Positions 43,927-51,291 of a DNA stretch of 64,000 nt are shown piece by piece. This stretch comes from Escherichia phage 241Ecol014PP, in the sequence record OR062943.1. One strand, written 5' to 3'. The position numbers were made by a program, and so were the translations under genes. Position 1 is the first letter of the stretch. Each line of letters begins with the position of its first letter. A model generated the notes under the pieces. The model ran no database searches. It had not been told where the DNA came from and saw only the letters and a program-made list of their open reading frames with translations.

Positions 43927-44574
43927 ATGGAAGAATGGAGAAAACTGGTTGGCAGGGAGGCCAACTATGAAGTTAGCAGTAAAGGAAGGATTAAAAGGCT
44001 GTCTTACCTGAGGAAGTACAGTAACCAAACAGGTAAAGTTACTTTCAAAGCTGTCCCTGACAGGATTTTAAAAGGTAGCGTAGACAGTAGCGGTTACATT
44101 CAAGTAAATGTAGATGGAAGATCGGAATTGCTTCACAGGTTAATTGCCGAGACCTTTCTAGAGCCTCCTTCAAAAGAGCTTGTAGAGGAATGTAAGGCAG
44201 CAGGGCTGGACTATGTGCCGATCAATCATAAAGACCATAACCGCCTAAACAATGCTGCTGACAACCTTGAATGGGCCTCGCCTTCAAAAAATGCACAAGA
44301 TGTGGACTACGACTACCATAAAACAAGAGGGGAAAGTTCATACTGTGCAAAACTTAAAGAGCGAGATGTTGACGAAATATTAAAGCTTTCCAAAACAGGT
44401 ATGTCACAGCAAGCTATAGCAGATCTTTTCGGTGTTAATCAGATAACCATTTCCAATATCTTGACAGGTAGGAGTTGGGCATGGTACACTGGGATACCTA
44501 AAACCGCAAGGTGTAAAAACAAAAGGGGGAGATCCCCGAAAAGCATGTCTGAGCAAAATTTCTCTGTAAGCTGA
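43927..44574 (+). CDS. HNH homing endonuclease (NUMOD4-like N-term, HTH C-term)
   Basis: EEWRKLVG..YEVSSKGRIKR N-terminus; INHKDHNRLNN..NLEW HNH core; C-terminal MSQQAIADLFGVNQITISNIL helix-turn-helix. Confidence 0.6.
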   Translation: MEEWRKLVGREANYEVSSKGRIKRLSYLRKYSNQTGKVTFKAVPDRILKGSVDSSGYIQVNVDGRSELLHRLIAETFLEPPSKELVEECKAAGLDYVPINHKDHNRLNNAADNLEWASPSKNAQDVDYDYHKTRGESSYCAKLKERDVDEILKLSKTGMSQQAIADLFGVNQITISNILTGRSWAWYTGIPKTARCKNKRGRSPKSMSEQNFSVS

Positions 44575-46049: not shown

Positions 46050-46078
46050 TTGACAAGAAAGATGGGACCTATTATAAT
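46050..46078 (+). promoter_or_regulatory. sigma70 promoter, consensus hexamers
   Basis: TTGACA, 17-nt spacer, TATAAT. Confidence 0.65.
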
Positions 46079-46370: not shown

Positions 46371-46759
46371 TGAAAAATATTTGGGATATTGATATCTTTG
46401 AAGCCTCTAAGCTTGACGGTGCTGATGGAGTTATTATGGTGTCTGATGGCAAGGCAACACTAACTTCTGGAGATATCATCTATGCCTTGGACGAGCTGGC
46501 GCTTCTGAAATCTACCGGTAACACTTTAGAGGAGCGTCTTCAAGGCTTCGCCTTCAAAGAAGGCACAAATACCGCCATGATGTGCACCACACGGACAGTT
46601 CAGGTTGGTAACGGTGTCTATATGATCATTGCTGTGTGTCCTAAATTCAGCAACGTCAATAAAGATGATGCTGACGCTGTCAACGATGGGGTTGTTCTCT
46701 TCGTGGGTGACGCTATGGCAGATCTGATGAATGCAGGAGAAGCAGCAAATGAAGACTGA
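46367..46759 (+). CDS. hypothetical protein
   Basis: 130-aa ORF, start overlaps upstream stop. Confidence 0.4.
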   Translation: MMKNIWDIDIFEASKLDGADGVIMVSDGKATLTSGDIIYALDELALLKSTGNTLEERLQGFAFKEGTNTAMMCTTRTVQVGNGVYMIIAVCPKFSNVNKDDADAVNDGVVLFVGDAMADLMNAGEAANED

Positions 46760-47051
46760 AAACATCACCCCAGCAGGGTTTTTAAAAGTATACCGTGAAC
46801 TGCTATATACTACAGAGGACAGTGTTCTAGAGTATCCAGAATATCTTTTGCTGTATAAGTATCTGCAGGAGGCTGGTGAAAATCTGCCAGTTAGTGCAGA
46901 AGGTGGTCCGAACTGGATATACAGCGCATGGAGAAAGGTTGACATTCTCCCAGATCCAGGTAAAGATATGGTAGTTTGGCAGCTTATCAACAACATCGGG
47001 ATTCCAATCTTTGATGAAGCTGTTAAAATCTATTTTGAACTTGACGATTAA
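46749..47051 (+). CDS. hypothetical protein
   Basis: ATG 46749 after AGGAGAAG; track ORF begins at 46731. Confidence 0.4.
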   Translation: MKTENITPAGFLKVYRELLYTTEDSVLEYPEYLLLYKYLQEAGENLPVSAEGGPNWIYSAWRKVDILPDPGKDMVVWQLINNIGIPIFDEAVKIYFELDD

Positions 47052-47397: not shown

Positions 47398-47763
47398 ATG
47401 GAACAAATGAACGATCAAGCGTCGGTTGCGATGAACGAGCAAGAACAACCTCAAGAATTTTTCTTAGGGTTAAGTAAAGATCAAGTGTCTCTTTTGCTAG
47501 TGCTTTCTTCTTTCATGGGAAGACTTCAGGAGCTCACACAACAGCCGGAGGCTGAACAATTATTTCAGGCTCTGCGTGAAGAAGAAAAATATCGTCGTTT
47601 GGACTATGCCTTAGGTTGGGTAGCTCAACAACGAGATATGCTGATGGCCCTCTCTGGGACCACAAGTTTTGCAATGGGCCTGTTGGCTCAAGTTCAGGAC
47701 AAATTAATTCAAGCAGGGTTTGCACACACGGCAAACACTAACGAAGAACAAGGAGACAAATAA
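47398..47763 (+). CDS. hypothetical Gln/Glu-rich protein
   Basis: 121-aa ORF; codon choice CTG/CGT-rich. Confidence 0.4.
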   Translation: MEQMNDQASVAMNEQEQPQEFFLGLSKDQVSLLLVLSSFMGRLQELTQQPEAEQLFQALREEEKYRRLDYALGWVAQQRDMLMALSGTTSFAMGLLAQVQDKLIQAGFAHTANTNEEQGDK

Positions 47764-48989
47764 TGAGCGTTATTCAACAATTCGCTAACCCGATGAATCC
47801 GCGTGAAACTGTTTTACTGGCTCACGGCATGATTAAACGCGTCAGCATCAAGCCTATCAAAGGTGCTGATCCTACAACAGGTATTAAAACCACTGTGTGG
47901 CAAGGTAAGAAAATTGAGTCCAGCCACACCATCTCTTTACTGATTTCTGAACTGGATTCCTCTGATAACCTGCTTCAAGGTGGTGAAGAAGTCTGGATCA
48001 GCATGGGTGATAAACTGCTTAAACCGGGTCATCAAGACTCTGTCTCTGTTAAAATTGATGACAAGTGGGAAACCGTAACACCGGGATGGATCGTAAATAT
48101 TCCTTTGAAGGCAAACGAGCATAACGGTAAGACCTATTACAAAGGCTCACTGGCTAAGATGGTCAAGCTGGGTGCAGGAGAGGCTCCAGCAGCGACTCAG
48201 CAGCAAAAACAGCAACAAGGTGCACAATCACAAGGCCAGAAGCAGAAACCTCAGCAGAATGCCAATCAGGACGTTTTACGCATCTACGGTGATGTGACTC
48301 AGATTGTTGGCAACGTGGTTACTGTTAATGACCACAAGATTGGCGAAGGTGCTATGGTTGTCACTGATGAGCAGCTTAAAGACCTGGTGGTGGGTGGTCG
48401 TGTTGCCGCCATTGTTGACAAAGACACCGGAAACATTATCAGTGGTTTCAAAGCCTATCCACCTAAGGCAGAGAACGGCACTCAAGGCTCTGGTGGCAAG
48501 CGTAAATCATCTTACGACCCTATCGGTGTGGAAACGGGGCATAGCATCAATGCGTTGCAGATCATCCTGGATCGCGGGTTTAAGGTAGACGACCCACTGG
48601 GCGTGGCTAAAACACTGCACGTAGTCACCATTGAGCTTAAGAAAGAGTATGCTCAAGCCACCAACCGAACTGAAGATGAAGTAGGTGCCAGTGTCGGTAA
48701 TGCGGTGTTGAACGCTTGTCGCCGTATTGACAAGAAAACGAAAGTTGATGATTTTGCAGCGGCAATTACTGCAGAAGCAAAAGATGTCTTGACTAATCTG
48801 GCTGAACCGTTGTACGATTGGATCAAGAACGGTGCTGGGTCAACCGACCATCAAGAACCTCAGGCTGCCAAACAGGAAGCAGCTCCACAGCAAAACACTG
48901 TAGACGCTCCTCCTGTAAATGATGAGGGAGATGACCCGATGGATCAGAATCCAGCACAGTATGAGTTCGATGACTCGATCCCTTTCTGA
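47763..48989 (+). CDS. SSB-like single-stranded DNA-binding protein with acidic C-terminal tip
   Basis: 408 aa; Gln-rich linker; C-terminus DDPMDQNPAQYEFDDSIPF resembles the bacterial SSB ...DDDIPF tail. Confidence 0.45.
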   Translation: MSVIQQFANPMNPRETVLLAHGMIKRVSIKPIKGADPTTGIKTTVWQGKKIESSHTISLLISELDSSDNLLQGGEEVWISMGDKLLKPGHQDSVSVKIDDKWETVTPGWIVNIPLKANEHNGKTYYKGSLAKMVKLGAGEAPAATQQQKQQQGAQSQGQKQKPQQNANQDVLRIYGDVTQIVGNVVTVNDHKIGEGAMVVTDEQLKDLVVGGRVAAIVDKDTGNIISGFKAYPPKAENGTQGSGGKRKSSYDPIGVETGHSINALQIILDRGFKVDDPLGVAKTLHVVTIELKKEYAQATNRTEDEVGASVGNAVLNACRRIDKKTKVDDFAAAITAEAKDVLTNLAEPLYDWIKNGAGSTDHQEPQAAKQEAAPQQNTVDAPPVNDEGDDPMDQNPAQYEFDDSIPF

Positions 48990-48997
48990 GGTCAGTT

Positions 48998-49576
48998 ATG
49001 AAATGCAAACGTTGTGGAGAGGACAAGGAGGCCTCCGACTTCTACACCAGTAACAAATCAACGTGCAAAGAGTGTTGCAAGAAGGCCAGCAGGGAGGCTG
49101 ACCAATTTGCTAAAGACTCTTCAGAAAAAGGTGTAATACGCGTGCTGTACAAGTCTCAAAAGTGCAACAGCAAGCAAAGAGGTCACCCTCCTCCGACTTA
49201 CACCAAAAAAGAGTTTAAGGAGTGGCTATACCTGAACGGTTACAAAGAGTTGTATGATCAGTGGGTAGCCAGCGGATACGACAAAAGGAAAAAGCCTTCT
49301 TGTGACAGGATAGATGATTTCAAAGGGTACTCTTTTGATAATATCCGTTTAACGACTTGGGGAGAAAATAAAGACAAGCAGACAGAAGATATTCTGTTAC
49401 ATAGAAGCACCAGCGGTAGACGGTGCAAAAATGTAAGGAGGTTGGACATGAATGGTAACGTTCTTAAAGAATGGGTATCCCACAACTCTTGTAGCAGAGA
49501 AACCGGAATATATATTGGTTACTACATTCATGAAAAAATTCCAGCTCCAGATGGATACTTCTATGAATACTTTTAG
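48998..49576 (+). CDS. HNH_3-type endonuclease with N-terminal Cys-rich zinc finger
   Basis: CKRCG..CKECC pairs; PSCDRIDDFKGYSFDNIRLTTWGEN HNH_3-like core. Confidence 0.5.
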   Translation: MKCKRCGEDKEASDFYTSNKSTCKECCKKASREADQFAKDSSEKGVIRVLYKSQKCNSKQRGHPPPTYTKKEFKEWLYLNGYKELYDQWVASGYDKRKKPSCDRIDDFKGYSFDNIRLTTWGENKDKQTEDILLHRSTSGRRCKNVRRLDMNGNVLKEWVSHNSCSRETGIYIGYYIHEKIPAPDGYFYEYF

Positions 49577-49591
49577 CACCTAACTGACATA

Positions 49592-49620
49592 GCCCTGCCC
49601 GAAAGGGTGGGGCATTTTTG
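49592..49620 (+). terminator. rho-independent terminator
   Basis: GCCCTGCCC-GAAA-GGGTGGGGC then ATTTTTG; same hairpin as at 36948. Confidence 0.65.
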
Positions 49621-49638
49621 TATAAGGAGATCTGAAAA

Positions 49639-50417: not shown

Positions 50418-50843
50418 ATGATCTATGAAATGCCAAAACTGATTCGTGACGATGCCCAAAACGCTCACACCATTATTATGGGCAAACGCATGGATATTAT
50501 TTGTCATAAAGATTTCTGGGAAGGAAGTTACTTCACAGAGTATTTTGGTAAACTGGACAATGGTCTGCTGATCCAGTTCTACACCGATGCGGAAAACAAC
50601 ATTCCCTGGGAGTTCGAAACTGAAGATGTCAATAAACTTTTCACCTTCCTCGGTATTAAGGTTAAGGCCAAGTTTGAAGAAGGTGAGTGCGACGATTGTG
50701 GATTTTATGAGGTAACAGATTTCTACCTTCCTAGCGGTAAGAACCTTTACTATGAAAGCCACTTCGGTAACTCCAATATGCCACAGTGCTGGACTGAGTT
50801 TTTTGAAATTGCGGAAGAGGAGCTGGCTTACCGTGATTATTGA
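50418..50843 (+). CDS. hypothetical protein
   Basis: 141-aa ORF; ends 11 nt inside the macro-domain gene. Confidence 0.4.
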   Translation: MIYEMPKLIRDDAQNAHTIIMGKRMDIICHKDFWEGSYFTEYFGKLDNGLLIQFYTDAENNIPWEFETEDVNKLFTFLGIKVKAKFEEGECDDCGFYEVTDFYLPSGKNLYYESHFGNSNMPQCWTEFFEIAEEELAYRDY

Positions 50844-51291
50844 TACTGTAGAGGGAGATTTAATCTCCCTTTTTAAGAGCGGTGCTGGTCACCTGATCCA
50901 CGGTTGTAACTGCTTCCACACAATGGGCAAGGGTATAGCAAAACAGATTGCCCGTGAGTTTCCTCAAGCACTGTCAGCCGACAAAGAGACTAGATACGGT
51001 TGCCTAAGTAAACTGGGTGCGTTCTCCCGATGGGAGCACTTATCTCCGATAGGTATTGTCTACGGAATCAATCTATATACCCAGTTCTACCCAGGACCTA
51101 ATGCTGAGTATTTCTCAATCCTGAAAGGCTTTGAGCTAGTCAATGAAGTATTCAGCGGATCGACTTTACCATTCTACATCCCTAAGATCGGGTGCGGCAT
51201 AGGCGGTTTGAAGTGGGAACACGTAGAGGACGTTATTAACCTTGCCACTTTCGACATAGATATTGTCGTGGTGGAGTACAAAAAGTGTTGA
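50833..51291 (+). CDS. macro-domain protein (ADP-ribose binding/hydrolase fold)
   Basis: GTG 50833 after GAGGAG; GDLISLFKSGAGHLIHGCNCFHTMGKGIAKQI and IPKIGCGIGGLKWEHV fit macro-domain signature. Confidence 0.55.
   Translation: MIIDTVEGDLISLFKSGAGHLIHGCNCFHTMGKGIAKQIAREFPQALSADKETRYGCLSKLGAFSRWEHLSPIGIVYGINLYTQFYPGPNAEYFSILKGFELVNEVFSGSTLPFYIPKIGCGIGGLKWEHVEDVINLATFDIDIVVVEYKKC

Follow-up and report, generated by a model that had tools for sequence, protein, structure and literature searches.

A probable SSB with a host-type C-terminal tip in Escherichia phage 241Ecol014PP and its relatives

Escherichia phage 241Ecol014PP (sequence record OR062943.1) encodes a 408 aa SSB-like protein that we consider, with a probability of about 0.65, to be the phage's own SSB, in which an OB-like domain, a helical bundle and an acidic C-terminal tip act in the ways proposed below. 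The gene lies at positions 47763–48989 of the 64 000 nucleotide stretch analysed here (the window), and all of the features described are on the forward strand. The assignment draws on the predicted folds, a tip conserved across the family, replication synteny, the lack of a competing SSB, expression signals and published work on Bas52_0087. The protein is a member of the PHROG 4477/Bas52_0087 family: the match to phrog_4477, a group without a functional annotation, covers residues 1–408 (E = 1.6e-172), and Bas52_0087 and Bas51_0089 are its orthologues.

The ORF begins with ATG and its product ends in NPAQYEFDDSIPF, followed by a stop; the C-terminal residues are DQNPAQYEFDDSIPF and the next codon is TGA. 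Across the same interval the reverse strand is closed by many stops. A Shine–Dalgarno-like GGAGA (47751–47755), read from the sequence, is found 7 nt 5′ of the ATG. The upstream gene (47398–47763) encodes a 121 aa helical protein (phrog_7310, function not assigned), and the two genes are probably co-translated, because the stop of the first overlaps the ATG of the second in TAATG. A gene of the phrog_7310 type is a conserved neighbour among the three-domain members of the SSB-like family, and in two of the related loci, L004 and L006, homologous 113 aa genes (phmmer E ~1e-10) lie directly 5′ of the SSB-like gene. A homing endonuclease gene (48998–49576), discussed below, is found at the 3′ end. 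The 121 aa gene, the SSB-like gene and the endonuclease gene form one unit that ends at a GC-rich hairpin with a run of T after it (49592–49623), which resembles a terminator and is kept in a third related locus, L003. The codon choice of the SSB-like gene, described in a first-pass annotation of the sequence as of a high-expression type, has a CAI of 0.394 on the E. coli Sharp & Li index; the median over the window is 0.279 (sd 0.066). The gene ranks 6th when the 75 ORFs that reach 80 aa are compared, and first when only those longer than 150 aa are. The claim is moderately supported.

The closest relatives are in Vequintavirus (rV5-like) genomes, where 113 near-full-length matches were found, almost all of them annotated 'hypothetical protein'. 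Among these relatives, bas51_0089 of Escherichia phage WalterGehring shares 98.5% DNA identity with the SSB-like gene. Using tblastn, homologues were found across the Vequintavirinae and their relatives (PVP-SE1, CR3, phi92 and Av-05) and in phages of Klebsiella, Cronobacter, Pectobacterium, Erwinia, Proteus and Acinetobacter. In a few phi92-like records (BME3, ESCO5 and KP2025) the homologue is annotated as an SSB. When 1.84 billion cluster representatives were searched exhaustively with a profile, 248 family proteins were recovered at E ≤1e-3. Most are 250–320 aa and consist of an N-terminal domain, a helical bundle and a tail. An additional barrel in the middle is an insertion seen in a subset of ~350–430 aa, which includes the 241Ecol014PP protein.

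An AlphaFold2 model of the 241Ecol014PP protein, built on a 27-sequence alignment (mean pLDDT 75, with 80–95 in the folded parts), contains three confident domains. The N-terminal domain (aa 1–139; 47763–48179) is all-beta and OB-like, and would be the main ssDNA-binding domain. A few of its positions are conserved (G22, H55, W77, G108, K123 and Y126). A Gln-rich linker (aa 140–169; 48180–48269) with pLDDT <50 leads to a small second beta-barrel (aa 170–235; 48270–48467), which is predicted to have five strands, the third and fourth joined through a short helix, an OB topology (b1-b2-b3-short helix-b4-b5). The Gln-rich character of the linker had been pointed out in the first-pass annotation and is borne out, with 13 Gln in the 33 residues from 140 to 172 and predicted disorder. 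That annotation missed the third domain, a conserved four-helix bundle (aa 250–358; 48510–48836). The bundle is the region of highest conservation in the family, with the strongest columns at G255, G259, H260, N263, G308, G312 and L316. Helices 1 and 3 each start with GxxxG (G255/G259-H260-N263 and G308/G312), and the bundle is a putative oligomerisation or partner-binding domain. It is followed by a second disordered linker (aa 359–399; 48837–48959), rich in Pro, Gln and acidic residues, that varies in both length and sequence across the family. The tip itself, YEFDDSIPF (aa 400–408, with the TGA; 48960–48989), matches the bacterial SSB-Ct motif DFDDDIPF, the acidic peptide through which the host SSB recruits its partners. 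Residues 359–408 have pLDDT <50 and terminate in DDSIPF and then the stop. As modelled, the protein fits the layout of a bacterial-type SSB, in which a disordered linker joins an OB fold to an acidic tip.

When the model was used to query structures with Foldseek, no match was significant (best E 0.03) and the top list was made up entirely of OB proteins, including RPA, MCM N-terminal domains, the SSB of lactococcal phage p2 and DUF2815. The predicted model has an OB fold that resembles SSB in three dimensions. The small OB folds of IF1 and of proteasome Rpt proteins aligned over 65–71 columns with probabilities of 0.97–0.99; judged from their size, these matches probably belong to the middle barrel (aa 170–235). 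A structure search with the helical bundle alone returned no specific solved relative.

At the level of sequence, the folded part of the family is unrelated to classical SSBs. A Pfam search with the 241Ecol014PP protein at E values up to 10 gave no SSB match, only a spurious one to DCX2 (E 0.23), and a PDB sequence search returned nothing meaningful. None of 100 family members matched PF00436, Pfam yielding only low-complexity noise. When the family profile was compared with the PDB, only the last ~25 positions, which correspond to the tip, aligned to E. coli SSB, and hhalign assigned a probability of 0.1% to a match between the family and the OB domain of E. coli SSB. As the protein fails the PF00436 profile comparison, we have not filed it in that family. 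These sequence results count against the assignment as an SSB, as does the fact that the most conserved part of the protein, the four-helix bundle, is without a counterpart in classical SSBs. Relative to the homotetrameric bacterial SSB (PF00436), the 241Ecol014PP protein is more than twice as long and adds the second small OB-like barrel, the four-helix bundle and the Gln-rich internal linker.

Membership of the other known groups that were considered (gp2.5-like, gp32-like and RecO-like) was rejected. T7 gp2.5, an OB-fold protein whose acidic C-terminal tail ends in an essential Phe, is the SSB of a replisome with a gp4-type primase-helicase and a family-A polymerase. The SSB-like protein shares with it an OB-like fold and an acidic tail ending in Phe, but differs in having a bacterial DDDIPF-type tail and extra domains that are absent from gp2.5. 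There is no sequence similarity between the two: phmmer --max with a gp2.5 query found no match at E up to 1, and the DUF2815 structure 4klk was only a weak Foldseek match (E 0.21). A phmmer --max search with T4 gp32 likewise gave no meaningful match, the Zn-binding core included. The combination that defines RecO, an OB fold with a RecO-type helical domain and a Zn finger, was not found.

What defines the family is its conserved acidic tip. P407 and F408 are invariant in an alignment of 27 homologues with identities down to 30%, and nearly all full-length family members end with an acidic run and [ILV]PF. In a set of 150 representatives clustered at 50%, an acidic run with an xP[F/W] terminus was present in 118. 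Among the others, one or two extra residues (6/150), an acidic run followed by F (5/150) or a longer extension (4/150) were found, and the remaining 17 are mostly truncated fragments. This conservation is far above chance. Several members share their 12 terminal residues, EPPMDFDDDIPF, with E. coli SSB. In the window and in a complete genome that is 97.6% identical (MG065662), the SSB-like ORF is the only one with the tip motif at its end. The first-pass annotation had noted that the YEFDDSIPF ending is close to SSB-Ct, and the ending proves to be conserved family-wide; its wider suggestion of an SSB-like protein with a host-type tip gains support from the family tip, the replication module and an independent preprint.

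The SSB-like gene sits in a replication module. It is downstream of primase-helicase and polymerase genes and directly after the phrog_7310 gene of ~120 aa, as expected of a Bas52_0087 family member. In Bas51, genes for a T7 gp4-like primase/helicase and a family-A DNA polymerase, the latter containing an intron, are 4–10 kb upstream on the same strand. The position is held in distant lineages. In P0053, genes for a family-A polymerase (PF00476) and a Toprim/DnaB primase-helicase lie 1–2 kb upstream of the homologue. In P0056, it is 1–2 kb downstream of a Toprim_2 primase-helicase and a 699 aa putative polymerase, which has only a faint RNase_H_2 match, and a T7 gp5.9-like gene is directly upstream of it. 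No SSB is listed in the rV5 genome paper, which names a ligase, a polymerase, a primase-helicase and a Pif1 helicase (PMC3606486). When E. coli SSB, T7 gp2.5 and T4 gp32 were used as phmmer --max queries, a search of only moderate sensitivity, no match was found in the window or in MG065662. As only these three query families were searched, the phage may encode a second, divergent SSB.

The SSB-like reading with a host-type tip has already been published for Bas52_0087 (QXV84166.1), which is 99% identical to the 241Ecol014PP protein (404/408 residues, equal length). In the Bas52 genome (MZ501102), bas52_0087 occupies the same position, after a 121 aa gene and downstream of the DNA polymerase. 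The homing endonuclease that is directly downstream in 241Ecol014PP is not present in Bas52, and the tips differ slightly (YEFDDSIPF in 241Ecol014PP and YSFDDDIPF in Bas52). A preprint dated 30 April 2026 found that Bas52_0087 of phage RudolfGeigy/Bas52 is required to activate the DRT10 (UG17) reverse-transcriptase/SLATT defence, and that phages escape through D252V or Y351C substitutions in it (bioRxiv 10.64898/2026.04.29.721553). Using Phold and AlphaFold2, its authors predicted two OB folds and a disordered C-terminus with an FDDDIPF tip, which they called an 'SSB-like architecture'; their prediction and tip reading agree with ours. They also reported that the dosage of SbcB, the host exonuclease I, modulates the defence and proposed a link between Bas52_0087 and this enzyme; these genetics suggest ExoI/SbcB as a candidate tip partner. 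When expressed alone, Bas52_0087 neither harmed cells nor triggered DRT10 (bioRxiv 10.64898/2026.04.29.721553), which counts against the assignment as an SSB.

Both D252 and Y351 are present in the 241Ecol014PP protein. In the AlphaFold2 model, D252 is just before bundle helix 1 and Y351 is inside helix 4, so that the DRT10-escape sites are placed by the model in the conserved four-helix bundle. This location fits the 'putative oligomerisation interface' of the preprint and names the domain to which it belongs. The preprint does not single out the bundle as a conserved domain of its own, and neither the wider family nor the endonuclease-linked extension considered below is described in it. Papers on Retron-Asa1/Squ1 and Eco2 that name Vequintavirinae were set aside, as they concern different genes.

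In our proposal, ssDNA produced by the T7-type primase-helicase and family-A polymerase would be coated by the N-terminal OB-like domain, probably with the assistance of the second OB-like barrel in the Vequintavirinae, and the protein would associate with itself or contact a partner through the four-helix bundle. The tail, long and disordered, would present its free C-terminal DDSIPF to host proteins that have SSB-Ct pockets, for example exonuclease I (SbcB), which is known to bind the SSB tip. Docking at the tip would then recruit host activities to phage ssDNA, or compete them away. Like the gp2.5 tail in T7, the same tail may also contact phage replisome proteins such as the polymerase and helicase, and the tip could serve the T7-like replisome of the phage in addition to host partners or in their place. 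In this scheme, ssDNA binding, oligomerisation via the bundle and the identity of the tip partners are what we infer only.

Three other explanations were considered, and they are not mutually exclusive. The protein could be a decoy or hub that displays many SSB-Ct tips and so sequesters or redirects ExoI, RecQ, PriA, Pol III chi and UDG, with the effect that the ends of phage ssDNA are protected or the DNA transactions of the host are shut down; coating of the fork would be secondary or absent. The tip is the most universally conserved feature and in several members is identical to that of the host over 12 residues, the folded domains are without sequence similarity to SSBs, and the preprint ties the protein to SbcB-dependent control of ssDNA species, all of which would suit such a role. 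However, classical SSBs bear the same tip, and the tip alone therefore does not imply a decoy. A conserved OB-like domain with aromatic and basic residues and a fixed position in the replication module fit a protein bound at the fork, and E. coli tolerates expression of the protein on its own, which argues against a strong withdrawal of essential SSB partners. We consider a decoy unlikely.

A further candidate was a recombination mediator, single-strand annealing protein or helicase loader, comparable to RecO, which has an OB domain and a helical domain; such a protein would be tethered by the tip to host or phage factors and would not coat ssDNA stoichiometrically. RecO does appear among the structural matches, but ranks below many SSB and RPA matches and probably aligns to the OB part only, while the helical domain alone failed to retrieve RecO, gp59 or any loader. 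RecO binds the SSB tip rather than carrying one, the SSB-like protein has no Zn-finger motif, and the three-query phmmer search found no other SSB on which a mediator could act. We consider a mediator very unlikely. Alternatively, the tip might act mainly within the replisome, docking on the phage polymerase or primase-helicase in the manner of the gp2.5 tail, with its likeness to the host tip ancestral or convergent. The replisome genes are of the T7 type (a gp4-like primase-helicase and a family-A polymerase), the SSB-like gene holds its place beside them in distant lineages, and it is established that the C-terminal Phe of gp2.5 is essential for contact with gp5 and gp4. Yet the motif D-F-D-D-D-I-P-F matches the bacterial SSB-Ct and not the gp2.5 tail, and the SbcB genetics of the preprint point to host partners. 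The two uses are compatible, and we give little credence to one that is mainly internal.

The endonuclease gene at the 3′ end of the SSB-like gene encodes 192 aa and belongs to phrog_1035 ('endonuclease VII'). It follows the SSB-like gene in ~50 of 115 Vequintavirus records. The SSB-like ORF continues for 15 codons beyond IPF in 22 endonuclease-bearing Vequintavirus records and also in several distant homologues. The added peptide is APVGLQYGKSRIHAL in L003, and the distant homologues have similar forms. Recognition of SSB-Ct depends on the terminal Phe carboxylate, and because of this the 15 aa extension, which would bury that carboxylate, would mask the tip. In 241Ecol014PP, the junction has been remodelled: ~35 nt are missing, the N-terminus of the endonuclease is different and TGA directly follows IPF, and the tip is therefore free. 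The possibility that the SSB-like gene contains an intron that houses the endonuclease gene, with the 15 aa 'APVGLQY...' tail of relatives as the second exon and a real product that does not end in IPF, was rejected for the 241Ecol014PP window because no such exon is present and a terminator follows the endonuclease gene.

That the extension is a by-product of the endonuclease cassette is partly supported. In L003 and L006 it and the start codon of the endonuclease gene overlap in different frames, and all 22 of the extension-bearing Vequintavirus records carry the endonuclease. Against this, the L004 lineage has kept the extension without the endonuclease, either as a relic or because it is retained for a function.

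A broader and more tentative interpretation, to which we give somewhat less than even odds, is that the family of ~250 clusters forms a separate class, as yet uncurated, among the replicative SSBs of phages. Its members would combine an orphan OB domain, a GxxxG bundle that is a new oligomerisation or partner module sensed by defence systems such as DRT10, and an SSB-Ct tip for T7-type replisomes, and a homing endonuclease that targets the DNA encoding the tip would generate 'capped-tip' alleles (+15 aa). If this is true, the class would provide SSBs for T7-type replisomes in the Vequintavirinae and in other phages, and capped-tip alleles could tune or disable the recruitment of host partners.

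Vequintavirinae (rV5-like phages) are in wide use for phage therapy and biocontrol and, to our knowledge, had no recognised SSB until 2026. Beyond what the preprint reported, we add the architecture of the family, the placement of the escape sites in the bundle, the lack of a sequence relationship to classical SSBs and the link between the endonuclease and masked-tip alleles. Naming the SSB-like protein would fill a gap in the T7-like replication machinery of the Vequintavirinae with a protein that is sensed by bacterial immunity (DRT10), and its host-type tip would give these phages a concrete route by which to engage exonuclease I and other SSB partners.

The three-domain members of the family, in which the N-terminal OB-like domain is followed by a small second beta-barrel and a 4-helix bundle, always have a gene for a 113–121 aa helical protein (phrog_7310) directly 5' of the SSB-like gene. 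This gene is at 47398–47763 in the window, and at 2145–2486 and 642–983 in the related loci L004 and L006, respectively. Short family members, which lack the second barrel, do not have a phrog_7310 neighbour. In the window, the phrog_7310 and SSB-like genes are translationally coupled via a TAATG overlap, and the helical protein may be a functional partner of the SSB-like protein. A DUF7238 protein (PF23885; window 46731–47051) is encoded 2–3 genes upstream of the SSB-like gene, a position that is retained in the related loci L003 and L004. Further upstream, a perfect (12/12) match to the sigma-70 consensus promoter, TTGACA and TATAAT separated by a 17 nt spacer, lies at 46050–46078, on the same strand as the SSB-like gene and approximately 1.7 kb from it. 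In L008, from a distant phage contig, the gene immediately upstream of the family member, which it overlaps by 1 base, is T7 gp5.9-like (PF25708; 8837–9001). Gp5.9 is a RecBCD inhibitor.

Within the 4-helix bundle, helices 1 and 3 open with similar motifs, GxxxG(H/N)xxN (aa 255–265; window 48525–48560) and GxxxGNxxLN (aa 308–319; window 48684–48719). Their likeness suggests that either a helical hairpin was duplicated internally or the helices pack tightly through GxxxG.

Sixteen unannotated 'UNVERIFIED' records (MG065635–MG065690) are named 'Campylobacter phage' (A142, C2 and others) and carry the host label Campylobacter jejuni. Across the SSB-like locus they are 97–98% identical to rV5-like phages of E. 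coli, and probably either the host labels are wrong or the records are contaminants. In Salmonella phage 40 (KR296694; L002 4001–5182), the SSB-like orthologue is split into three annotated fragments, named 'terminase large subunit', 'hypothetical' and 'single-stranded DNA-binding protein', that look like the products of frameshifts or sequencing errors. These transferred names are unreliable.

The early/replication region around the SSB-like gene is rich in mobile endonucleases. A 192 aa homing endonuclease (phrog_1035, 'endonuclease VII') is encoded at 48998–49576, at the 3' end of the SSB-like gene, and its homing site may be the conserved tip-coding DNA of that gene. Of 115 Vequintavirus records, approximately 50 carry this endonuclease, and Bas52 lacks it. 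Another free-standing homing endonuclease, with NUMOD4, HNH_3 and HTH domains, is found at 43927–44574, and the DNA polymerase gene of Bas51 is interrupted by an endonuclease-containing intron. In the window, a 179 aa protein (50752–51291) with a weak Macro-domain match (PF01661, E 3.5e-6) and a match to phrog_335 'phosphatase' may be an ADP-ribose-processing enzyme, e.g. with a counter-defence function.

Comparison of L003 (4225–4275) with the window (48987–49000) revealed that the SSB-like ORF of some relatives continues for 15 aa beyond the IPF tip, with the consensus A-P-[IV]-G-L-Q-Y-x4-[IV]-[YH]-A-L. Relative to L003, the window has a gap of approximately 35 nt, and the stop codon immediately follows IPF. 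The extension is also found in P0001, P0007, P0020, P0044, P0048, P0051, P0060, P0092, P0147 and P0170, and it shares DNA, in another frame, with the beginning of the homing endonuclease gene that follows. Among the Vequintavirus records, 22/115 include the extension, and the endonuclease is present in all 22. The L004 lineage has kept the extension and the endonuclease is absent. Where present, the 15 aa would mask the free C-terminal Phe of the SSB-like protein.
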